IMG/VR virus record: IMGVR_UViG_2851938318_000001
Direction: 5' to 3' (one strand)
From: a virus
Taxonomy: Duplodnaviria > Heunggongvirae > Uroviricota > Caudoviricetes
DNA: 64,000 nt
The notes below the pieces were generated by a model, which saw only the letters and a program-made list of their open reading frames with translations, did no database searches and had not been told where the DNA came from. The position numbers and the translations under genes are program-made. This document shows positions 1-12,441 of this stretch, in pieces (position 1 is the stretch's first letter; each line of letters opens with the position of its first letter).

Positions 1-1056
1 ATGAGCGAAAACGGCAATAAAAACATAGCGATCGTTGAAGCATTTTCAGAAACAGATAAAAAGACAGGCGAAGTTGTTACGTTGGTTCCTAACACTAATA
101 ACACTGTTCAGCCTGTTGCTTTGATGCGTCTGGGCCTCTTCGTTCCGACGCTGAAATCGACATCCAGAGGAAGAAAGGGGCAAATGGTCTCTATGGATGC
201 CTCTGCTGAACTCAAACAGCTGTCTCTGGCAAAAGCCGAAGGGTACGAAGACATAAGGATCTCTGGCCTTCGGCTTGATATGGATAACGACTTTAAAACG
301 TGGGTGGGAATAATCCACGCGTTTGCCAAACACAAGGTCGTTGGCGATACTGTCACGTTGCCGTTCGTTGAGTTTGTAAGGCTGTGTGGCATTCCGACCG
401 CCAGGTCATCAGCGAAGTTACGCAAACGCCTGGACAGTTCGCTAAGCCGTATTGCCACAAATACCATCTCGTTCCGTAGCAAAGGCTCTGATGAGTTTTA
501 CGTAACGCATCTTGTGCAAACGGCAAAATATAGTGTCAAGCACGATACGGTCGAACTGAAAGCAGATCCCAAGATTTTCGAACTCTACCAGTTCGACAAA
601 AAGGTTCTTCTGCAACTCCGGGCTATAAACGAACTCTCAAGAAAAGAATCCGCTCAGGCGCTTTATACTTTTATTGAAAGTTTGCCGCCTGATCCGGCAC
701 CAATATCACTAGCCCGTTTACGCGCCAGACTTAATCTGACAAGTCGCACTATTACTCAGAATGCGACGGTAAGAAAGGCTATGGAACAGCTGCGAGAGAT
801 AGGATATCTCGATTACACGGAAGTTAAGCGCGGAAACTCGGTCTACTTCGTCATCCACTATAGGCGGCCAAAGTTACGCCAGGCACAAATATCAACAAAA
901 ATCGATAATGATGAGACGGAATATAGCCTCCCAGATGAGAATCAAGATGACATTATCGACGTTGTGCCTGACGAAAAAGAAGGCAAAATGGTCATGTTGA
1001 GTAAAGAAGAACTGGCGCTTCTCGAAGAGTTGCGCAAGGCAAAGACTCGCAAATAG
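1..1056 (+). CDS. repA: Plasmid/phage-plasmid replication initiator RepA (iteron-binding, P1/RepFIB-like)
   Basis: 351-aa ORF with RepA-like conserved blocks ([48 protein letters not shown]); followed directly by iteron-like repeats. Confidence 0.8.
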
Positions 1057-1482: not shown

Positions 1483-2369
1483 TGCCACTGCTGGATAAGC
1501 TGCGTGAGCAGTACGGGGTCGGACCGGTATGCAGCGAACTGCATATTGCCCCGTCAACGTATTACCATTGTCAGCAACAGCGACATCATCCGGATAAACG
1601 CAGTGCCCGTGCGCAGCACGACGACTGGCTGAAGAGAGAGATACAGCGCGTATACGATGAAAATCATCAGGTGTACGGTGTGCGTAAAGTCTGGCGTCAG
1701 TTGTTACGGGAAGGAATCAGGGTGGCCAGATGTACAGTGGCACGTCTCATGGCGGTTATGGGACTTGCCGGTGTTCTCCGGGGTAAAAAGGTCCGTACGA
1801 CCATCAGCCGGAAAGCCGTTGCCGCAGGCGACCGCGTAAACCGTCAGTTCGTGGCAGAACGACCTGACCAGCTGTGGGTGGCTGATTTTACTTACGTCAG
1901 CACATGGCAGGGCTTCGTCTATGTGGCGTTTATCATTGATGTGTTTGCCGGATACATCGTGGGGTGGCGGGTCTCATCGTCTATGGAAACGACATTCGTG
2001 CTGGATGCGCTGGAGCAGGCGTTGTGGGCCCGTCGTCCGTCTGGCACCATCCATCACAGCGATAAAGGCTCTCAGTATGTGTCACTGGCCTATACGGAGC
2101 GACTAAAAGAAGCCGGATTACTGGCATCAACAGGGAGTACAGGCGACTCGTATGACAACGCGATGGCTGAGAGCATCAATGGTCTTTACAAAGCGGAGGT
2201 AATACACCGTAAGAGCTGGAAAAACCGTGCAGAAGTGGAACTGGCCACACTAACGTGGGTGGACTGGTATAACAATCGACGATTGCTGGGAAGGCTGGGC
2301 CATACTCCTCCGGCAGAAGCAGAAAAAGCTTATTATGCTTCCATCGGAAACGATGATCTGGCAGCCTGA
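1479..2369 (+). CDS. IS629 transposase OrfB (DDE domain; normally expressed as OrfAB by -1 frameshift)
   Basis: 296-aa ORF overlapping orfA end at A-run (ggaaaaaatgatg). Confidence 0.85.
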
Positions 2370-2411
2370 GTTCACAGATAAAACACTCTCCAGGAAACCC
2401 GGGGCGGTTCA

Positions 2412-2661
2412 GTGAGCCTTACTTATATCTGTAATTCGCTATCCACTATAGTGAGTATCGTTATCTGTTGATAACCACTGTAGGCAGTAGAATGCAAATA
2501 CTGAATGAAATGTTAGTGATCACTAACACTGATGAAACAAGGGCTGCGAGGTTAGTGGTCACTGGGTATCTTGGAAAATTTACTGTCTATAGTGGTTGTT
2601 GTCGCCCTCATCTTTGAGCGTATCCACTGTGGCGAGTGGATATCCACTGAAAACAGCAAAG
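2412..2661. repeat. Iteron copies in mixed orientation between the two tandem IS copies
   Basis: atccactatagtgagta, aaccactgtaggcagta, tactgtctatagtggtt, atccactgtggcgagtggat. Confidence 0.5.
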
Positions 2662-2715
2662 TGAACCGCCCCGGAAATCCTGGAGACTAAACTCCCTGAG
2701 AAAGAGGTAAACAGG

Positions 2716-3042
2716 ATGACTAAAAATACTCGTTTTTCCCCCGAAGTCCGTCAGCGGGCGATTCGTATGGTTCTGGAAAGTCAGGATGAATATGACTCAC
2801 AGTGGGCGGCAATTTGTTCCATTGCCCCAAAGATTGGCTGTACGCCGGAGACTCTGCGTGTCTGGGTTCGCCAGCATGAGCGGGATACCGGGGGCGGTGA
2901 TGGTGGGCTCACCAGCGCTGAACGTCAGCGTCTGAAAGAGCTGGAACGTGAAAATCGTGAACTGCGCCGCAGTAACGATATCCTTCGCCAGGCTTCCGCT
3001 TATTTTGCGAAGGCGGAGTTCGACCGCCTCTGGAAAAAATGA
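2716..3042 (+). CDS. IS629 transposase OrfA
   Basis: Identical 108-aa translation. Confidence 0.85.
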
Positions 3043-3929
3043 TGCCACTGCTGGATAAGCTGCGTGAGCAGTACGGGGTCGGACCGGTATGCAGCGAACT
3101 GCATATTGCCCCGTCAACGTATTACCATTGTCAGCAACAGCGACATCATCCGGATAAACGCAGTGCCCGTGCGCAGCACGACGACTGGCTGAAGAGAGAG
3201 ATACAGCGCGTATACGATGAAAATCATCAGGTGTACGGTGTGCGTAAAGTCTGGCGTCAGTTGTTACGGGAAGGAATCAGGGTGGCCAGATGTACAGTGG
3301 CACGTCTCATGGCGGTTATGGGACTTGCCGGTGTTCTCCGGGGTAAAAAGGTCCGTACGACCATCAGCCGGAAAGCCGTTGCCGCAGGCGACCGCGTAAA
3401 CCGTCAGTTCGTGGCAGAACGACCTGACCAGCTGTGGGTGGCTGATTTTACTTACGTCAGCACATGGCAGGGCTTCGTCTATGTGGCGTTTATCATTGAT
3501 GTGTTTGCCGGATACATCGTGGGGTGGCGGGTCTCATCGTCTATGGAAACGACATTCGTGCTGGATGCGCTGGAGCAGGCGTTGTGGGCCCGTCGTCCGT
3601 CTGGCACCATCCATCACAGCGATAAAGGCTCTCAGTATGTGTCACTGGCCTATACGGAGCGACTAAAAGAAGCCGGATTACTGGCATCAACAGGGAGTAC
3701 AGGCGACTCGTATGACAACGCGATGGCTGAGAGCATCAATGGTCTTTACAAAGCGGAGGTAATACACCGTAAGAGCTGGAAAAACCGTGCAGAAGTGGAA
3801 CTGGCCACACTAACGTGGGTGGACTGGTATAACAATCGACGATTGCTGGGAAGGCTGGGCCATACTCCTCCGGCAGAAGCAGAAAAAGCTTATTATGCTT
3901 CCATCGGAAACGATGATCTGGCAGCCTGA
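3039..3929 (+). CDS. IS629 transposase OrfB
   Basis: Identical 296-aa translation. Confidence 0.85.
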
Positions 3930-3971
3930 GTTCACAGATAAAACACTCTCCAGGAAACCCGGGGCGGTTCA

Positions 3972-4180
3972 AAGGCTTACTCACCATAGTGGATACCCGC
4001 TGGACATCTCACTCCAATACTCACCATAGTGGTTGTTTGATGCGAATGAAAGGCTGTCTACTCGCTACAGTGGTTAGCAGATATGTAGGAAGGTTTTGTT
4101 ACTGACTACAGTGGATAATGAGCTGGATACGAATGCGGTGAGCAGACTACTCACCGCAGTGGTTGGTGCTATTAGTGTAT
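3972..4180 (+). repeat. Iteron array: five direct repeats at about 41-bp spacing
   Basis: tactcaccatagtgg at 3978 and 4018, tactcgctacagtgg at 4059, tactgactacagtgg at 4100, tactcaccgcagtgg at 4148. Confidence 0.6.
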
Positions 4181-4384
4181 TTTCTTCAACAGACCCCAAA
4201 GTGTTCCGGCTTTTGTAGTCAGTTTTCCTGTTTCTGGATCGTACATACGCCATTCACGCCGCTGGTGGACGATATACCCATCTTCACGTTCCAGACGCTC
4301 AAGAATGCCAGGCTGCTTGAAACCCTTAGCACGCCAGTAGCCGCTTGTTTTCTCGATTTCCAGACCTGCCAGTGTTAATGCCAT
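4172..4384 (-). CDS. Hypothetical protein (70 aa)
   Basis: ORF whose start is adjacent to the stop of the upstream 111-aa gene; no recognisable domain. Confidence 0.35.
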   Translation of the reverse strand: MALTLAGLEIEKTSGYWRAKGFKQPGILERLEREDGYIVHQRREWRMYDPETGKLTTKAGTLWGLLKKIH

Positions 4385-4719
4385 TATCCAACCTCCTTGC
4401 AGTCATCGAAAAGGTAGCTTTGCTGAGAAGCGTGAACGCCATAGAAGCCCTTGTATTTGTTGTATACGAAGTGGTCTTCTCCGACGCCGGTTAATTTGCC
4501 ATTACGATTTGTGAGATATGGGGATGACAACACTCGATCGTCACGCACAACATAGAACTGGTCGCCGCTGTCTACGACCATCGCTCCATATGGTGCTTTT
4601 ATGACGTCGGTAAGAGCGCCATTCTTAACGTCGGCTACAGACATTTCACACTGATAAACAGTGGTGTCGGCCACAACGATCGAAGAAAGGAACAACAGCG
4701 CGAATGGGATGGCCTTCAT
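4384..4719 (-). CDS. Hypothetical secreted protein (111 aa, N-terminal signal peptide)
   Basis: MKAIPFALLFLSSIVVA signal-like N-terminus; start overlaps the stop of the upstream small ORF (ATGA). Confidence 0.5.
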   Translation of the reverse strand: MKAIPFALLFLSSIVVADTTVYQCEMSVADVKNGALTDVIKAPYGAMVVDSGDQFYVVRDDRVLSSPYLTNRNGKLTGVGEDHFVYNKYKGFYGVHASQQSYLFDDCKEVG

Positions 4720-4895
4720 GCTGCCACCTCTTTGATTACATCAAATGCTGAATTAAATACGAGCACGATAGCCAAAGCGTTTATGACTACGTCGTGCACC
4801 GGGGAAAAGACTTTACGAATGACACCAGTGAAAATGCAGTCGATGACAAAAGCTATTGAAACGATGAGTAACAAGTATTCAATAAAAATCTTCAT
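4716..4895 (-). CDS. Small hydrophobic protein (59 aa, below the ORF-track cutoff)
   Basis: Hand translation MKIFIEYLLLIVSIAFVIDCIFTGVIRKVFSPVHDVVINALAIVLVFNSAFDVIKEVAA; stop overlaps the next start. Confidence 0.35.
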   Translation of the reverse strand: MKIFIEYLLLIVSIAFVIDCIFTGVIRKVFSPVHDVVINALAIVLVFNSAFDVIKEVAA

Positions 4896-4934
4896 GATAG
4901 GTAGATACTAACTTATATAAATTTTACTGTAAAC

Positions 4935-5210
4935 TCACTCAAAAGTGCTGATGCTTAAAATACGCTCAAGATGTTCGGCATCTTCATCACTGATTTGTTG
5001 AGTCTCTTCTACGTACCAACAGTTGCCGTTATGCCAACAAACACCATCATCATCAACCATCACTGAATCAGCGTCATGACCTGTATATTCAACGAGAATA
5101 CGCTGGATCAGCGCGTCAGTTTCTTCGTCGTTAAGGCCATCGGCTTTGACCATAAAAAGCGGAAACACGTCATAGACAGTGCTGGTAACGATTCGAACTA
5201 AAACTCTCAT
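4935..5210 (-). CDS. Hypothetical protein (91 aa)
   Basis: ORF in the same-strand gene series; no recognisable domain. Confidence 0.4.
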   Translation of the reverse strand: MRVLVRIVTSTVYDVFPLFMVKADGLNDEETDALIQRILVEYTGHDADSVMVDDDGVCWHNGNCWYVEETQQISDEDAEHLERILSISTFE

Positions 5211-5265
5211 GTGTTTTTCCTTTTGTGGTTAGTGTTTACTTATTTTGTTAGTTATGAATAGGCGA

Positions 5266-5691
5266 TCAATCTTCTTGTTTAGGGAAAAACTGTTCAATAA
5301 CTCTGTCAACGGCTGTGTCTATATGGAGTAGATGCCACACAACCATATCTTTGCTTCCCATGCCTTGTGTGAATATCACGTCATACTTACGCCATGCGCA
5401 GTGGAACCAATATGCTGAGTCATCAATTGGTAAATCCTCTCCCGCCTCTTTGAAGTATTTCAGCAGCATTGCCTGCTCTGCCGTTGGCGTTGGACCTATT
5501 TCCTGAGCGTACATACGGATGAATCGCTGCCAGTCTGTCTCGTCGGTGGTCGGATCTGGTGGATTCATTTCGGCGATAGCGTTTCGTAGCTGATGCGCCC
5601 AATCAGGTTCAGGAAAGCCTTTTGCTGCTTCATCATCAATAACATCCAGAGCCACGTTTGCGGCATCGTAGAGTTTCTTAATAGCTGTCAT
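5266..5691 (-). CDS. Hypothetical protein (141 aa)
   Basis: ORF with AAGGA RBS 8 nt upstream, preceded by the palindromic TTTTAAACAAATTGTTTTCT motif. Confidence 0.5.
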   Translation of the reverse strand: MTAIKKLYDAANVALDVIDDEAAKGFPEPDWAHQLRNAIAEMNPPDPTTDETDWQRFIRMYAQEIGPTPTAEQAMLLKYFKEAGEDLPIDDSAYWFHCAWRKYDVIFTQGMGSKDMVVWHLLHIDTAVDRVIEQFFPKQED

Positions 5692-5740
5692 GTTTTCTTA
5701 TCCTTTTAAACAAATTGTTTTCTTAATAAGATAATTGCGA

Positions 5741-5765
5741 TAAAAAAGGCGTCCAACTGGACGCC
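5741..5765 (-). terminator. Rho-independent terminator downstream of the SPFH gene
   Basis: ggcgtcc-aact-ggacgcc stem-loop followed by a T-run on the minus strand. Confidence 0.55.
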
Positions 5766-5782
5766 TGAACTTTTTAGGGGAG

Positions 5783-6613
5783 TTATTTCACTGTAATGAA
5801 AGGAGTGTTAGCCCCTTGAGTCATGTACTGCGGTAACTGGCCATTCCATTTATTGATGGCTTCCAATTCCATAACGTTCGGGTTTTGACGCAGAGCTTCA
5901 CCGCGCAGACGAATGGCGTCTGCTTCTGCTTGCGCACGAGCACGGATAGCATCAGCTTCACCATTAGCCTGTTCACGTAGCATATTCGCCTCAGCTTTAC
6001 GTTGTTCAACTTCCTGCTGACGTTGCAGAGTACGCTGGTTAGCCGTTACTTTGGCGTTAATAGATTCAATGACAGTTTTTGGGTAATCAGGCTTTCCAAC
6101 CCATGACAGGCTCAGTACCTCAATACCAACCGGAGACATCTCTTTCTGAATATCTTTCAGTGCGTTGTCCAGCAATTGTGCCTTACCACCGTCGATAAAT
6201 GAGTCAGTGGTCATACGGCTGGCCAAACGGTTTAGAGAGTCGGCAATTTTCTGACGCAGATCTGATTCGGTGATATCGTCTACGCCTTTGCGATAGGTCT
6301 GGAACACCGTCGTTACCTTGTCACGATTAACCAGATACGCAACGCCAATTTTGTGACCAATAGCAGTACCGTCACTCATCTGGAATGTGAACGGCTCGTC
6401 GTAGGTCTTCATTTGTTTGAAGGTCGGGAATACGTAAAGTTCGGTGTTAAGACCTGTCCATTGGCGACCAACGCCAACCACTTCACCAATCCCTTTGTCT
6501 TCACCTAATTTGTTTACTTTGATGCCAACGTATCCAGGCTCCACGCGATCGCAGCCAGTAAGACCCATTGTGCAAATAGCCGCCAGAGCAACTGCAAGTA
6601 AACCTTTCTTCAT
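5783..6613 (-). CDS. SPFH/band-7 (prohibitin/HflC-like) domain lipoprotein
   Basis: Lipobox LTGC after signal peptide; SPFH-like core and C-terminal Ala/Glu/Arg coiled-coil. Confidence 0.65.
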   Translation of the reverse strand: MKKGLLAVALAAICTMGLTGCDRVEPGYVGIKVNKLGEDKGIGEVVGVGRQWTGLNTELYVFPTFKQMKTYDEPFTFQMSDGTAIGHKIGVAYLVNRDKVTTVFQTYRKGVDDITESDLRQKIADSLNRLASRMTTDSFIDGGKAQLLDNALKDIQKEMSPVGIEVLSLSWVGKPDYPKTVIESINAKVTANQRTLQRQQEVEQRKAEANMLREQANGEADAIRARAQAEADAIRLRGEALRQNPNVMELEAINKWNGQLPQYMTQGANTPFITVK

Positions 6614-6616
6614 TAC

Positions 6617-6817
6617 TTATTTCCCCTTTGCTTTGATTAATGAGTTGATAAACTTACGACCAGCAATAAGACCGATTACAGGAGCACCAAAACCAACGAT
6701 AACTCCAAACATGACGGCTAAATCACTCTTGGTAGAAATCAGCGACGGAACCAGTAAACCGTAGATGAGAGCCACTGAAAGGCCTGTGGTTACTGCCAAT
6801 AGATAGATTTTGATCAT
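6617..6817 (-). CDS. Small membrane protein (66 aa) immediately upstream of the SPFH gene
   Basis: Two predicted hydrophobic helices; 3-bp gap to SPFH start. Confidence 0.5.
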   Translation of the reverse strand: MIKIYLLAVTTGLSVALIYGLLVPSLISTKSDLAVMFGVIVGFGAPVIGLIAGRKFINSLIKAKGK

Positions 6818-6879
6818 GTGTTTTCCTATGTGGTTGTTATGCGAAAATAATAAGTAAGTACTTATATATTTTCAAGAGA

Positions 6880-6907
6880 TAAAAAAGGCGTCCTGTGGAC
6901 GCCTTGT
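6880..6907 (-). terminator. Rho-independent terminator downstream of the recA-like C-terminal fragment
   Basis: aaggcgtcc-tgtg-ggacgcctt stem-loop followed by a T-run on the minus strand. Confidence 0.55.
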
Positions 6908-6909
6908 GT

Positions 6910-7620
6910 TTACTCTTCTACTGACTCGGTGGGATTGTCTTTTGATCTCCGGTCGTCGATTGCCTGTAAAGCCGCAATGATTTCAGCTAGTGGCTTCTCC
7001 CGATACATCTCGACGATCTGTGATTTGGTGTATTTCTTGTCACCAATTTCTACGCGCCCGCTGGCGTTCTTTGGCAGGTATCCTTCATCCAGCATGTACT
7101 CGACGAGCGATTCGATAACGTCGAGGCCACGAGTAGGATCGAAGTAGAATTTCCAGGTGCACTTGCCATACGGTGGTGCAACTTTGTTTTTGATGCACTC
7201 TGCGCCTACGTCCTGACCGATCTTCTCTTTACCATCCTTCATCACCGATGCACCAAGACGGATACGTACAGAAGCGTAGAACTTCGGTGAATCTCCACCT
7301 GGCGACGTAGTAGGGTCGCCAAACATTACACCGATTTTTGTGCGAACCTGATTCAAGAAGATGATGCAGGCGTTGTATTTGCGTGCCCACAAAGCCAGAG
7401 TAGGGAAGTTCGCACTCGTCGCACGAGCCAGTGCCGTATTGTCGTTCATGTTTAGCTGATCTTTGTCTTTGGCAGTGCCTTCAGCCATCTTTTCGAACTT
7501 CTCGGCTTTGGAGTTCGGAACCATAGACGCAAGAGAGTCAGCCACGATACAGATAGGTGCTGATTCGGGGATAAGCTCTTCATCACGAACCAATTTAAGT
7601 ATTGTGCCGATCAACTCTAC
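6910..7620 (-). pseudogene. RecA-like recombinase, C-terminal fragment (interrupted by IS629 copy 3)
   Basis: Translation VELIGTILK...CIVADSLASM...NACIIFLNQVRTKIGVMFGDPTTSPGG...KFYASVRIRL matches RecA core motifs; ORF runs to the IS boundary. Confidence 0.75.
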
Positions 7621-7674
7621 TGAACCGCCCCGGAAATCCTGGAGACTAAACTCCCTGAGAAAGAGGTAAACAGG

Positions 7675-8001
7675 ATGACTAAAAATACTCGTTTTTCCCC
7701 CGAAGTCCGTCAGCGGGCGATTCGTATGGTTCTGGAAAGTCAGGATGAATATGACTCACAGTGGGCGGCAATTTGTTCCATTGCCCCAAAGATTGGCTGT
7801 ACGCCGGAGACTCTGCGTGTCTGGGTTCGCCAGCATGAGCGGGATACCGGGGGCGGTGATGGTGGGCTCACCAGCGCTGAACGTCAGCGTCTGAAAGAGC
7901 TGGAACGTGAAAATCGTGAACTGCGCCGCAGTAACGATATCCTTCGCCAGGCTTCCGCTTATTTTGCGAAGGCGGAGTTCGACCGCCTCTGGAAAAAATG
8001 A
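7675..8001 (+). CDS. IS629 transposase OrfA
   Basis: Identical 108-aa translation. Confidence 0.85.
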
Positions 8002-8888
8002 TGCCACTGCTGGATAAGCTGCGTGAGCAGTACGGGGTCGGACCGGTATGCAGCGAACTGCATATTGCCCCGTCAACGTATTACCATTGTCAGCAACAGC
8101 GACATCATCCGGATAAACGCAGTGCCCGTGCGCAGCACGACGACTGGCTGAAGAGAGAGATACAGCGCGTATACGATGAAAATCATCAGGTGTACGGTGT
8201 GCGTAAAGTCTGGCGTCAGTTGTTACGGGAAGGAATCAGGGTGGCCAGATGTACAGTGGCACGTCTCATGGCGGTTATGGGACTTGCCGGTGTTCTCCGG
8301 GGTAAAAAGGTCCGTACGACCATCAGCCGGAAAGCCGTTGCCGCAGGCGACCGCGTAAACCGTCAGTTCGTGGCAGAACGACCTGACCAGCTGTGGGTGG
8401 CTGATTTTACTTACGTCAGCACATGGCAGGGCTTCGTCTATGTGGCGTTTATCATTGATGTGTTTGCCGGATACATCGTGGGGTGGCGGGTCTCATCGTC
8501 TATGGAAACGACATTCGTGCTGGATGCGCTGGAGCAGGCGTTGTGGGCCCGTCGTCCGTCTGGCACCATCCATCACAGCGATAAAGGCTCTCAGTATGTG
8601 TCACTGGCCTATACGGAGCGACTAAAAGAAGCCGGATTACTGGCATCAACAGGGAGTACAGGCGACTCGTATGACAACGCGATGGCTGAGAGCATCAATG
8701 GTCTTTACAAAGCGGAGGTAATACACCGTAAGAGCTGGAAAAACCGTGCAGAAGTGGAACTGGCCACACTAACGTGGGTGGACTGGTATAACAATCGACG
8801 ATTGCTGGGAAGGCTGGGCCATACTCCTCCGGCAGAAGCAGAAAAAGCTTATTATGCTTCCATCGGAAACGATGATCTGGCAGCCTGA
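7998..8888 (+). CDS. IS629 transposase OrfB
   Basis: Identical 296-aa translation. Confidence 0.85.
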
Positions 8889-8930
8889 GTTCACAGATAA
8901 AACACTCTCCAGGAAACCCGGGGCGGTTCA

Positions 8931-11900
8931 ACTGATGGTTCGAACTGACTTCTCACTTGGGGAGTCGGCTCTAAAAGCAGAAAACGCGGTGAAGATTGCC
9001 AGAGAAGCTGGCTACACCGCTGTAATTTCAGCAGATAGCATGAATATTGCGAGCGTTATTCCACTACAACGTGCCGCTGGTGACGACATGGCGGTTATTT
9101 GTGGTGTGAAACTAAACATTGTTGATGATCCCACATACGAGCACCGGGCTAAACTTGCTAAAGAATCTATGAGATGTATGGAATCATTAGAGCGGGGACG
9201 TAACTACTCGTTTACCGCTCTAATTAAAAATGAGCAAGGATATCGCGACATCTGCGAACTAATGACGGCGGCCAACACACGAGAACAGTTCTACTTTGTA
9301 CCGCGTCTCTCGCTCGAACAGTTGGTTTCTACATATGCCAAAGGCAACATCATCCTGCTTACTTCCGACATCGGTAGCGTGTTCCAACGCAACGATTTTG
9401 CAAAAATCATAAGCACACTGATTACAGCGGGTGGAAAAGACAACTTCTATAGTGTGGTTTATCCGCACCCTACCCCATTCTACGACCAGATTAACGTCCG
9501 GGCGATGAAAGTCGCCAGCGCATTGAAAATAGAGCCAGTGGCGTTCTATCCCGCTTATTACGAATCGATCGACGATGCAGACATTAAAGACATTGCGCAC
9601 ATGGTTACGAACAACATCAAAATCGACCAGCCGCATCGTCTGCGTATCCCCCACCAGCGAGATAACGCCGTCAATGGTCGCCGCCATCTCCTTGAGGCGC
9701 TTAAAGCCTTCTCCGTTCGCATGGATGTGCCGGTAACAGCTGCAATGGCCTCAACAACGCAGGATACCATTATCGATGCCTGCACATGGCGCTGGCATGA
9801 ATTGCCGCCAGCACTGCCAAAGATGGCAGACGACGAGCCTGCAACGCTTATGAAACTGGCTGTTGCAGGGCTGCGTAAACGTCTTACCACAAAAGAGTTT
9901 GGCTACACACCACCTGCTTCTGAGAACAGGGTTTATGTTGAGCGGCTAAAGTACGAAATGGACACGCTGACTCGCCTGGGATTTTGTGGTTACTTCCTGA
10001 TGGTACGCGATCTGATGAATCATAGTCGTGAAACTGGCATTCCCGTTGGGCCTGGTCGTGGTTCCTCTGCCGGTTCTCTGGTGGCGTGGTGCATAGGCAT
10101 AACCAACGTCGACCCAATCCGTCACGGTCTTCTGTTTGAGCGTTTCATCAACCCTGAGCGTCTCGACTTGCCGGATGCGGACTTGGACTTCAGCCAGGCA
10201 CGTCGCCATGAGGTGATCGAGTATCTGAATGAACGCTACGGCGAAGATTACGTTGCGGGTATTCCGAACTTCACCTACCTGGGCGCAGCCTCTGCACTAC
10301 GTGATACCGCTCGTATTTATGGTGTGGAGTCCGCAGATATGGCGGTATCAAAAGAACTGAAGAACGTCGAGGATGATAGCCTTCCATTGGAAGAGCTGCG
10401 CGAACAACTGGCAAGTCTCGACAAATACGCAACAAAATATCCTGATGCATTCAATGCAGCCTGCAAGTTACAAAGCCTTATGCGTGGCTTTGGTAGACAT
10501 GCGGCAGGGATGATCGTAGCAGGTGTTCCTCTGACAGAACGTACACCGGTTGAGCGCCGTGGTGACGCGCGTTGTATCGCATTTGACAAGCGTTACTGCG
10601 AGGCTATGGGCCTAATTAAGCTGGACGTGCTTGGCCTGGCAACTCTCGATTTGCTCGATAGTGCAAAACGCTACATAAAAGAGAACACAGGTGAAGATAT
10701 CAATCTTGATGCCATTTCTCTTGAAGATCGCAAGGTGCTGGATGGTTTTGCTGCTGGGTACACTCAAGGTGTTTTCCAGCTTGAATCAGGCCCAATGCGC
10801 AAGCTGCTTAAAGATTTAGGTGGTGGAATTGAGCCAATGAGCTTTAAAACGGTCGTCGCTACAACTGCGCTCTTCCGGCCGGGGCCAATTCAATCAGGCA
10901 TGTTGGATGACTATGTTTCTGTCGCCAAAGGCTTTATGACGCCGGAATCATTACACCCCGTTCTTGATGAACTTACCGCGGAAACAAATGGCGTGATTCT
11001 CTATCAGGAACAGACGATGAACGCGACTCGATTGCTTGCCGGCTTCACAATGGCTGAAGCTGACGCTGTGCGTTCCGCAATCGGTAAGAAGAACATGGAA
11101 AAAATGAAGAGCATGGGCGAGAAGTTTATCGTTCAGGCTCAAGCTGGCTGGATAGACGTTGAGCTGGAAGATGGCACTACACAGCGCATTCACCGTGCGG
11201 AACATTTTAAATGCGAAGACGGAACTCTGAAAACTGTCGAAGAGGCACTTGAGCACGGCGCAAAACTACCTATAAACGCAGTACGCGTTACAGCGTCACA
11301 TCCAGGGCTATCAGAGATGAAAGCGAAGGAGATCTGGACCGCATTTGAGAAAAACGGAGCCTATCAGTTCAATAAATCACACTCCGTTGCTTATTCTTTA
11401 ATCAGTTATCAGTCTATGTGGCTAAAGACGCACTACCCTGCTGAGTTCTTCGCAGCTGCGCTCACCATTCTGGGCGAGGATAAGCATCAGGGGCTGGTGA
11501 AGGATGCGCTGACCTATGGCATTCGCGTATTGCCACCAGACGTTAATGTGTCATCTAACCGAATTGAGATCCGCACACTCGAAGACGGCAGTCAGGCACT
11601 GTATGCGCCATTCTCTGCTGTGAAAGGCTGTTCTGAAAATGGTTGTCAGGCAATTATGCGTGCGCGTGAGAAAGTTGGTGGCAAATTCGAGTCAGTGGCA
11701 CAATTCGATGAAGCGGTCGAGAAGCGTGCATGTAACAGTCGTGTACGCGAGTCGCTTCATAAAGTAGGGGCTTTTGCGTCAATTGAGCCAGGCAGTCTGC
11801 CAGCAACTGATCCTGAACGACTGCGCGACCAGGCTGAGCTGATGGGCAATCTCATCATTGACGCTGTTAAAGCATCACGTCCGTTCGAAATGAATCCTAA

Positions 11901-12441
11901 GCGTTCTGCCGAAATCAACGTACTCATGACACGTATGGCGGCTGAAATGGGCTTGGGTGAGGAGTTGATACGCCCGACTATTGGTATTAAACCCAAAATC
12001 ATGATCATTCTGGACAATGCGAACGGCAATGACGCTCGTACCGGCTACTTCATGGAGAACGGATACGACGACTTTAAGGCAAAACTACTGACAGTTGGAG
12101 ATCTGCGCATGGGCGATCTTTATGTCACGGGTGTTTGTAAGAAGGTTAAGGACAAAGAGAAAGACTATACCAAAGACGAGATAGGCCAGTTCACAGACTT
12201 TATGCGGGAAGAAATTAATCTTGTACGACCAACCTACATTTTGACGTGTGGTAGTCGTTCAACCGCACTATTTAACAATAAGAGTAAACCATCAGATCTG
12301 ATTGGTCGTAAGGAGTACTTCCCAGAGCTTGATGCAACCGTCTTCTACGGATTTAACCCGAATATCCTGTACTTCCGACCGGAAGAAGGAGAGCGACTGG
12401 AGGCCATTCTGGCTGATATCGCGGAGACAATAAATAAGTAA
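8931..12441 (+). CDS. dnaE: DNA polymerase III alpha subunit (DnaE-like), separated from its native start codon by IS629
   Basis: PHP-like N-terminus and Pol III alpha signature GPGRGSSAGSLVAWCIGITNVDPIRHGLLFERFINPERLDLPDADLDF; ORF-track start at 8854 is IS-derived, first in-frame ATG after the IS at 8935. Confidence 0.8.

Follow-up and report, generated by a model that had tools for sequence, protein, structure and literature searches.

The window analysed here, the whole 64,000-nt stretch of a Caudoviricetes virus (IMG/VR record IMGVR_UViG_2851938318_000001), contains a block of seven open reading frames (ORFs) on the minus strand that is flanked on one side by iterons and repA and on the other by a truncated recA. 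A previous model-made reading of the letters (the sequence-only reading) had listed these seven ORFs, placed them between the origin and the recombination genes and described them as one accessory membrane/secreted block. We find all seven ORFs at the coordinates it gave, and its placement of the block stands. Each ORF matches a PHROG family (E 1e-25 to 1e-108), and its protein sequence is retained in more distant relatives (59-96% identity with SSU5, Enterobacter and pMT1). Instead of a single module, however, the block consists of two self-contained, independently promoted transcription units within a replication/recombination backbone, with two cytoplasmic-type genes between them and different distributions. 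Unit 1 (6875 to 5747, minus strand), comprising a promoter, the gene of a 66-amino-acid (aa) membrane protein, the gene of an SPFH lipoprotein and a terminator, is a widely shared phage module, and we refer to its two genes as the pair. Unit 2 (4933 to 4172, minus strand), which we refer to as the trio, is a three-gene operon of the SSU5 group only. The label 'membrane/secreted' fits four of the seven products and fails for three, a DUF7238 protein, a 91-aa protein and a 70-aa protein, because these lack a convincing membrane or export signal. An association with the cell envelope thus survives as a prediction for the pair and for the 59- and 111-aa products of the trio, which have predicted membrane or export features.

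The features of unit 1 and the hairpin that precedes it, all on the minus strand, are as follows.

6885..6905, minus: terminator hairpin T1 immediately behind the recA stop codon, AAGGCGTCC-ACA-GGACGCCTT plus a T run
6847..6875, minus: pair promoter, sigma-70-type (TTGAAA, 17 nt, TATTAT; 10 of 12 matches in a promoter scan)
6617..6817, minus: 66-aa two-helix membrane partner, phrog_1130 family, helices at residues 4-22 and 33-51
5783..6613, minus: SPFH/Band-7 lipoprotein, 276 aa, phrog_200 (E 3e-108)
5747..5766, minus: terminator hairpin T2, AGGCGTCC-AGTT-GGACGCCT followed by a T run, after the SPFH gene

The SPFH lipoprotein

The 276-aa protein is a member of the SPFH/Band-7 superfamily: Pfam PF01145 (Band_7) covers residues 23-209 with an E value of 2.6e-30 and 106.2 bits, against a cut-off of 23.6. 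As read from the sequence, its signal peptide ends in the lipobox MKKGLLAVALAAICTMGLTG-C21 (LTGC, in agreement with the pattern [LVI][ASTVI][GAS]C), and Cys21 is invariant in nine diverse homologues. Because this lipobox-bearing signal peptide is the only hydrophobic stretch of the protein, the anchor would be lipid, and an N-terminal transmembrane (TM) anchor of the HflK/HflC type is absent. The mature part begins with Cys21 and an Asp at position +2 and continues through the SPFH domain and a coiled-coil region to a conserved C-terminal KW-G-LP motif; alignment of the homologues additionally shows a conserved segment from the cysteine onward, C-D-R-V-E-P-G-x-V-G. Retention of lipoproteins with Asp at +2 is the established E. 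coli rule for avoidance of Lol sorting, and we infer from it that the protein stays in the inner membrane and that its SPFH domain faces the periplasm.

Sequence matches in the PDB are to prohibitin, HflC, HflK and QmcA, and the alignments run through the region that forms the coiled-coil wall, with the coiled coil of the phage protein aligned to residues 196-293 of HflC and 181-298 of HflK. We rejected the identification of the protein as an HflK or HflC orthologue, as its scores lie far under the family cut-offs (HflC equivalog TIGR01932, 30.2 bits against 134.4; HflK TIGR01933, 18.7 against 159.4). Across NCBIfam, the seven proteins of the block yielded only sub-threshold matches of the SPFH protein to HflC, HflK and flotillin, and the other six proteins had no match.

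The membrane partner and the spread of the pair

The stop codon of the 66-aa gene lies 3 nt from the SPFH start, and the direct upstream position of this gene, which the sequence-only reading had pointed out, is confirmed. The 66-aa protein carries the signature P24-x-L-I-S28...G38. Its predicted topology is N-in/C-in, because the positive-inside rule applies to its basic C-terminal tail, and this topology puts the signature loop and the beginning of helix 2 at the leaflet facing the periplasm; the P-x-L-I-S loop is thereby predicted to adjoin the conserved post-cysteine segment of the lipoprotein. A search of Pfam with the 66-aa protein found no family at E values up to 1. Among 28 diverse partners, the core aligns without gaps and Pro24, Ser28 and Gly38 are each conserved in at least 90%; 24 of the 28 fall in phrog_1130, and none convincingly matches any Pfam family. 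An identity as NfeD (PF01957) was considered and rejected, with 0 of the 28 matching it.

By tblastn, the SPFH lipoprotein occurs in 413 GenBank phage records of very different kinds, including Stx/lambdoid, P2-, P1-, N4-, rV5-, FelixO1-, LUZ24- and T7-like phages, phiCbK, Lak and crAss-like phages. BLAST with the 66-aa protein reached SSU5-like phages only. We surveyed the position upstream of the SPFH gene, using 160 IMG/VR loci retrieved with four divergent SPFH queries. A small TM ORF lies just upstream in 151 of them (about 94%); 124 partners pass a strict motif filter, and most of the others show variant motifs by eye. Loci read individually have a two-helix ORF of 55-84 aa directly upstream of the SPFH gene in many lineages: SSU5-like elements, the P2-like P88, the Stx phage phiP27, the N4-like KpCHEMY26 and Paxi, the P1-like 813R1, the T7-like ProddE, phages of Vibrio, Pseudomonas, Desulfovibrio and Stenotrophomonas, lambdoid and P2-like prophages, and prophages of Enterobacter and E. 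coli. In a Burkholderia phage the partner ORF is annotated with 107 aa, and phiCbK is an exception with a three-helix protein. The two genes meet in an ATGA overlap or a 3-nt gap across lineages, with the gap in the window and the overlap in other lineages. Thus, the idea that the SPFH protein has a dedicated small membrane partner is borne out in about 94% of the 160 viral loci and in at least seven unrelated phage lineages. Nor is the module unusual for phages, the 413 records including strictly virulent phages.

Since the pair recurs in T7-, N4-, rV5-, P2-, P1-, lambda- and SSU5-like phages, it is a common mobile phage module. In those annotated phages that we examined, lytic and temperate alike, it is placed with early or DNA-metabolism genes, a context which suggests that it has its role during activity of the phage genome.

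Two observations concern individual loci. In the reference record of phiP27 (NC_003356), the 62-aa partner ORF (2316..2504), which overlaps the SPFH start by ATGA, is unannotated. rV5-like phages, including PVP-SE1 and SNUABM_55, have one small ORF between the partner and SPFH genes; it encodes a soluble protein of 51-57 aa, MLLNLKA..W.KL..LA...GKS.. (L006 2329-2493; L094 4201-4356; L108 984-1157), which by eye looks like a ribbon-helix-helix protein.

A promoter-to-terminator cassette

Hairpins T1, upstream, and T2, downstream, bracket the SPFH cassette in a terminator scan. They share the stem GGCGTCC-N3-5-GGACGCC, which occurs exactly twice in the window against 0 expected. Two exact copies are also present in most SSU5-like loci that have the pair; pMT1 and L021 deviate in having one, and the other copy of pMT1 shows a compensatory stem change. 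A Klebsiella relative that lacks the pair has a single hairpin, right after its recombinase gene. From the twin hairpins and this single copy, the pair reads as a discrete promoter-genes-terminator cassette that was gained or lost at a duplicated terminator. With its own promoter and terminator between backbone genes, it has the architecture of a phage moron. The promoter region of the pair is nearly invariant in E. coli, SSU5, Enterobacter and pMT1, with the flanking coding DNA about 20-25% different.

The trio and the two genes between the units

The remaining genes of the block and the promoter of the trio are as follows.

5266..5691, minus: DUF7238 protein, 141 aa, acidic (Pfam DUF7238, E 2.3e-37)
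4935..5210, minus: acidic protein, 91 aa, phrog_2209
4905..4933, minus: trio promoter (TTTACA, 17 nt, TAGTAT in the promoter scan)
4716..4895, minus: first trio gene, 59-aa two-helix membrane peptide, phrog_2535
4384..4719, minus: exported protein, 111 aa, phrog_2077, with a signal-like hydrophobic N terminus and invariant Cys24 and Cys107
4172..4384, minus: homologue of P1 Cra, 70 aa, phrog_804 (E 6.5e-34 over residues 1-70)

The DUF7238 protein has no TM segments or membrane signal and lies outside both envelope units. In the trio, the 59- and 111-aa ORFs overlap by ATGA and the 111- and 70-aa ORFs by TAATG, each with a Shine-Dalgarno site inside the upstream ORF, in keeping with the tight coupling noted earlier. 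Five relatives have the identical promoter sequence and Klebsiella an almost identical one, and the promoter region is nearly unchanged in E. coli, SSU5, Enterobacter and pMT1 despite coding divergence of 20-25%. The 59-aa ORF lacks a Shine-Dalgarno site, and a mere 9 nt separate its ATG from the -10 element, so that the trio mRNA is probably leaderless or nearly so.

The 59- and 111-aa proteins are found only in SSU5-like elements, and the family of the latter is narrow (23 clusters). The best AlphaFold2 (AF2) model of the 111-aa protein (predicted local distance difference test score, pLDDT, 85) is a small all-beta barrel closed by a Cys24-Cys107 bond, and we accordingly model the protein as a putative periplasmic, disulfide-bonded beta-barrel. 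A PDB profile search with its sequence returned noise only, and Foldseek with the model against the PDB returned nothing significant (all E at least 0.018). Its resemblance to PliC/MliC lysozyme inhibitors is at the level of fold class only, with no Pfam family at E values up to 1; a role as a periplasmic binder or inhibitor would be a guess.

By sequence, the 70-aa protein is assigned as a full-length member of the P1 Cra family (phrog_804). A tblastn comparison with P1 cra gives 43.5% identity over 62 aa (residues 8-69 of the 70-aa protein), and homologues appear by tblastn in SSU5-like and P1-like phages only. The family has 23 cluster representatives among 1.8 billion proteins, all of 70-73 aa, with G-Y-W-R-A-K-G-F and LLK motifs. 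The 70-aa protein is basic and probably cytoplasmic, and its gene is the most conserved of the trio (84-99% identity across relatives); its structure model is of low confidence and had no match.

In an S. Typhi pHCM2-type allele (P0136), a deletion has joined helix 1 of the 59-aa peptide in frame to the 111-aa protein, of which residues 45-111 are left. This fusion, found on about 1000 contigs, is without Cys24.

A scan of the seven proteins against PADLOC-DB gave no credible match to a defence or exclusion component; the sole match, of the 59-aa peptide to a Cas5 model (E 0.0087), was judged to be noise. A scan of Rfam over 3900-7100 on both strands found no RNA family.

Genomic setting

Region 4000-7000 shares 99.6% identity with many non-mobilisable E. 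coli plasmids of about 110 kb, 96.8% with Escherichia phage Cyrano and about 75% with Salmonella phage SSU5. On the strength of these identities, we assign the element to the SSU5/pHCM2/pMT1-type phage-plasmids of E. coli, here riddled with IS1203. Its first 12 kb hold a RepA initiator gene, three IS3-family copies, the truncated recA and a DNA polymerase III alpha gene.

1..1056: repA, RepA initiator
1102-2411, 2662-3971 and 7621-8930 (ends approximate): three identical copies of IS1203, IS3-family
3978..4165: five 18-nt iterons, TACTCACCATAGTGGTTG-like, at a spacing of 40-48 nt
6910..7614: truncated recA, on the other side of the block from the iterons and repA

The iteron array abuts the 3' end of the trio, ending 7 nt from the stop codon of the Cra-like gene. 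It lies downstream of repA and makes up an incA-like array belonging to the RepA replicon.

Cyrano, SSU5, an Enterobacter plasmid and Y. pestis pMT1 share one gene order: recA, the 66-aa and SPFH genes, a variable slot, DUF7238, the 91-aa gene, the trio, iterons and repA. The Klebsiella relative retains the trio only. The slot after the SPFH terminator (window 5692-5782) is empty in the window, is occupied by a DUF2591/NinX gene in SSU5, pMT1 and Enterobacter, and contains three extra genes in the E. coli plasmid NZ_CP027369.1. Identities of the window proteins to those of SSU5, Enterobacter and pMT1 are 93-96% for the SPFH protein and the Cra homologue, 68-74% for the 111-aa, 63-68% for the 59-aa and 59% for the 66-aa protein. 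The block is thus part of the conserved backbone of this phage-plasmid family, though a Klebsiella branch lacks the pair, and is not a sporadic accessory. Its synteny is conserved, and we found no function reported for it in the literature.

Against Cyrano, the window has a sharp mosaic breakpoint exactly at the boundary of the SPFH and 66-aa genes (6613/6617): from the SPFH gene through the iterons the two are 99-100% identical, whereas the 66-aa gene, the promoter and the recA 3' end are 76-80% identical. Of the codon differences in the 66-aa gene, 16 are synonymous and 18 nonsynonymous. Positive selection on the partner was considered and rejected, as its 27% protein divergence from Cyrano is due to the recombination breakpoint and not to selection on the 66-aa gene alone.

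Several further observations concern the insertion sequences and recA. The first two IS1203 copies lie 250 bp apart, both within the short interval from repA to the iterons. The third cuts recA down to its last 234 codons and adjoins dnaE (8854..12441). The phage-plasmid copy in the window is rearranged and probably defective. The IS-dnaE junction is also present in pRM9131-1, where the whole block is deleted; the recA::IS1203 junction has no match in complete E. coli RefSeq genomes. recA is 2340 nt long in Cyrano (6912-9251) and 1077 nt in SSU5 (8234-9310), pMT1 and Enterobacter, and the long, Cyrano-type recA carries a LAGLIDADG homing endonuclease annotation in many E. coli plasmids, which suggests an intein or homing-endonuclease insertion in recA of the E. 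coli lineage.

Regulatory sites and expression

The spacer of the pair promoter contains a perfect palindrome, TAAGTACTTA (6855-6864), which is a candidate repressor operator. Palindromes of the GTAAGTACTTAC type give 17 strand-matches in the window against about 6 expected, a count that no shuffle reached. The sites are intergenic (6855, 14843, 20422, 23021, 23082, 28726, 47616 and 55847, among others), and those at 23021 and 23082 fall within the repressor intergenic region, on the upstream side of the repressor gene (23125..23511). The trio promoter carries the motif TATAAGTTAG[TA]AT, which has 2 matches in the window against 0.17 expected, at 4905-4917 and 22885-22897 only; the second is the promoter of a 70-aa gene divergent from the repressor. 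The -10 element and the ATG are 9-11 nt apart at both promoters, a spacing that suggests leaderless transcripts. The palindrome and motif sites look like a dispersed operator network that covers both units and resembles the P1 C1 operators. Inspection of both promoters by eye, no formal scan having been made, revealed no LexA-, PhoP- or Fur-type box.

RNA-seq values published for Cyrano in E. coli LF82 (Misson et al. 2023, PMC9928086, S1 Table), expressed as log2 of fragments per kilobase per million plus 5, log2(fpkm+5), allow overnight culture in lysogeny broth (LB) to be compared with 6 h in macrophages. The 66-aa gene (CYRAN_56) rises from 2.3 to 7.6-7.7, the SPFH gene (CYRAN_57) from 3.0-4.3 to 7.25-7.4, and the trio (CYRAN_60-62) from 2.3-3.8 to 8.3-9.0. 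The neighbouring genes change less, with 3.1-3.6 in LB and about 4.05 in macrophages for recA (CYRAN_55), 2.3-2.7 and 3.9-4.2 for DUF7238 (CYRAN_58), and 2.85-3.5 and 4.8-5.1 for the 91-aa gene (CYRAN_59) (PMC9928086). The pair and the trio are thus up by about 10-80 fold, with recA, the exonuclease gene and DUF7238 near 2.4-4.2. Transcript levels drop past T2, from 7.3-7.6 in the pair to about 4 in the next gene, and jump between CYRAN_59 and CYRAN_60, at the trio promoter. The data confirm transcription of the small ORFs, whose expression the sequence-only reading had left to be checked, in this close relative, as well as the predicted operon boundaries. In LB, the genes of the block are at prophage background and are not among the 13 Cyrano morons named by the authors, who also report no Cyrano virions above background in macrophages (PMC9928086).

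A proposed periplasmic scaffold module and its alternatives

The explanation that best fits these results as a whole, and to which we give an even chance, is that the pair is an HflK/C-like periplasmic scaffold module and the trio a separate operon, both inducible. In this model, the lipoprotein would be exported, lipid-anchored and held in the inner membrane through Asp +2. There it would oligomerise, building a ring or cage like that of HflK/C on the side of the membrane facing the periplasm, as suggested by its closest solved relatives, prohibitin, HflC, HflK and QmcA, with which it aligns through the wall region as well. The 66-aa protein would be an integral-membrane adaptor or an enclosed client of the scaffold. 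The pair would act early in infection or after derepression, to reorganise or shield the inner membrane. In the near-identical Cyrano, both units are silent in LB lysogens and switched on together inside macrophages, probably through the repressor/operator network of the phage-plasmid itself. The likeliest roles, blocking the entry of superinfecting-phage DNA or controlling the turnover or integrity of membrane proteins, are tentative, and each taken singly is rather improbable.

Several points weigh against this explanation. Formation of a cage and binding of the partner are drawn solely from the behaviour of the family and from synteny, and an Arg at +3 may weaken the Asp +2 retention, so that sorting to the outer membrane is conceivable. 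Some clades have no recognisable partner (a single-TM ORF in Pseudomonas TL, none in Erwinia phiEa104), and about 6% of the surveyed SPFH loci have no small membrane ORF upstream. The seven proteins match no PADLOC defence model. The operator assignment comes from sequence recurrence alone, and the expression data from Cyrano, a relative of 96.8% identity, not from the element in the window. In Cyrano, macrophage conditions also raise CYRAN_46 (beside the repressor), the major capsid gene and one tail gene, and the induction is therefore possibly lytic derepression in a subpopulation. For the trio, one AF2 model of five is confident, the other four of the 111-aa protein scoring 58-66, and its fold matches are generic.

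A broader form of the explanation, in which the pair is a two-component system, a lipid-anchored periplasmic SPFH cage plus its two-helix adaptor, that serves virulent and temperate phages across Proteobacteria as a general inner-membrane shield, acting by superinfection exclusion at DNA entry or by protection against membrane-targeting abortive-infection effectors, and has been wired into the repressor network in SSU5-type elements, seems unlikely to us.

We also consider it doubtful that the pair modulates FtsH, with the SPFH lipoprotein and its partner mimicking or hijacking HflK/C to tune FtsH proteolysis; the targets could be CII/CIII-type regulators, membrane proteins or LpxC, with effects on the lysis-lysogeny decision or on the protection of phage membrane proteins. 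The best sub-threshold NCBIfam matches are indeed HflC and HflK, the PDB matches include HflC/HflK chains of FtsH-HflKC complexes, and the predicted periplasmic orientation is that of HflK/C, to our knowledge the only periplasm-facing SPFH complex of E. coli. Moreover, the sampled lambdoid prophages have the pair between the repressor gene and int, on the int strand, and in lambda the FtsH inhibitor gene cIII lies in the repressor-int region. Published annotations speculate along the same lines. The scores, however, are far under the cut-offs (30 against 134 bits for HflC, 19 against 159 for HflK), and the phage protein lacks a TM anchor, whereas HflK/C wall off FtsH with TM helices of their own. 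The pair is also common in strictly virulent phages, which take no lysogeny decision, and the analysis produced no direct link to FtsH.

Alternatively, both units might be stress-responsive host-fitness morons that aid the lysogen under envelope stress inside host cells, a lysogenic conversion in which the scaffold would steady the inner membrane and the barrel would bind or inhibit a host factor such as lysozyme. The moron-like cassette architecture of the pair agrees with this proposal, as does the rise of both units by about 10-80 fold in macrophages with no virions above background (PMC9928086). The block is kept in the pathogen plasmid pMT1, and trio genes are kept in pHCM2-type Salmonella plasmids; an SPFH protein of a Pasteurella multocida prophage, which may or may not be a homologue, has been reported as a virulence factor (PMC9872710). 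This proposal is nonetheless improbable: the pair is at background in LB lysogens and absent from the authors' 13 Cyrano morons, the same module occurs in virulent phages, which are never lysogens, the lysozyme-inhibitor likeness of the 111-aa protein is at fold-class level only (Foldseek E at least 0.018), and the 59- and 111-aa genes are fused by deletion in the S. Typhi pHCM2-type allele.

A lysis-timing device, in which the 66-aa protein would be a pinholin-like or membrane-damaging peptide caged by the SPFH lipoprotein as an antiholin-like control, is very improbable even though the size, two TM helices, N-in/C-in topology and basic C-terminal tail of the protein resemble class II holins: a separate cassette annotated as holin, endolysin and Rz/Rz1 lies far off in Cyrano, the pair lies among early/DNA-metabolism genes and not among lysis genes in every annotated lineage examined, and the conserved residues of the partner are at the periplasmic interface and not along a pore-lining helix face.

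Significance and comparison with known systems

At the level of the window, the outcome is mainly one of clarification: SSU5-, pHCM2- and pMT1-type phage-plasmids have the block as a conserved part, and it comprises two inducible units, neither of which is a known defence system. The genes are already in databases as 'lipoprotein' and 'membrane protein'. We found no published description of their tight, motif-defined pairing or of its spread through virulent and temperate phages, and no published function for the pair or the trio; on phage SPFH genes, the literature that we found is speculation at the level of genome announcements (HflK/C and lysogeny; adsorption or entry). SPFH scaffolds are ubiquitous, and their cargo and purpose are still debated. 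In phages, an SPFH protein and a minimal membrane partner with a defined sequence signature fit into two genes and about 1 kb, which makes the pair a compact, genetically tractable system for the effects of SPFH cages on the bacterial inner membrane. The pair may also reveal a common phage strategy, be it exclusion, membrane protection or protease control.

Like the HflK/HflC-FtsH system of E. coli, the phage protein belongs to the SPFH/Band-7 superfamily, has its bulk predicted in the periplasm and is tied to phage biology. Unlike HflK/HflC, it would be lipid-anchored instead of held by an N-terminal TM helix, and it is paired with a two-helix partner of 61-84 aa, not with a paralogous SPFH subunit. 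The logic of a scaffold plus an adjacent, cotranscribed small membrane-protein gene is that of the SPFH-NfeD operons (such as QmcA-YbbJ and YqiK-YqiJ), and co-induction in Cyrano agrees with such an arrangement. The phage partner, however, has no NfeD domain, nor any soluble domain, and QmcA and YqiK face the cytoplasm, in contrast to the phage SPFH protein, a predicted exported lipoprotein.

In the B. subtilis pspA-ydjGHI system, the small membrane proteins SamG and SamH are reported to recruit the SPFH protein YdjI/SamI in membrane stress (bioRxiv 10.64898/2026.02.06.704340). YdjI/SamI is described as cytosolic and as working with PspA, whereas the module here is phage-borne and predicted to be periplasmic.

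The superinfection-exclusion proteins T4 Imm and Sp, P22 SieA, T5 Llp and phi80/N15 Cor are likewise small phage-made inner-membrane proteins or lipoproteins, often early, with their action at the envelope, and some occur in both virulent and temperate phages. They differ from the pair in that they have no sequence similarity to it and none is known to contain an SPFH domain, and the pair has no PADLOC match. For unit 2, the nearest relative is P1 Cra. The P1 gene is not preceded by 59- and 111-aa genes, but its product is of the same PHROG family and length class as the 70-aa protein, and in both elements the gene adjoins a plasmid-maintenance element, loxP-cre in P1 and the iterons and repA here.

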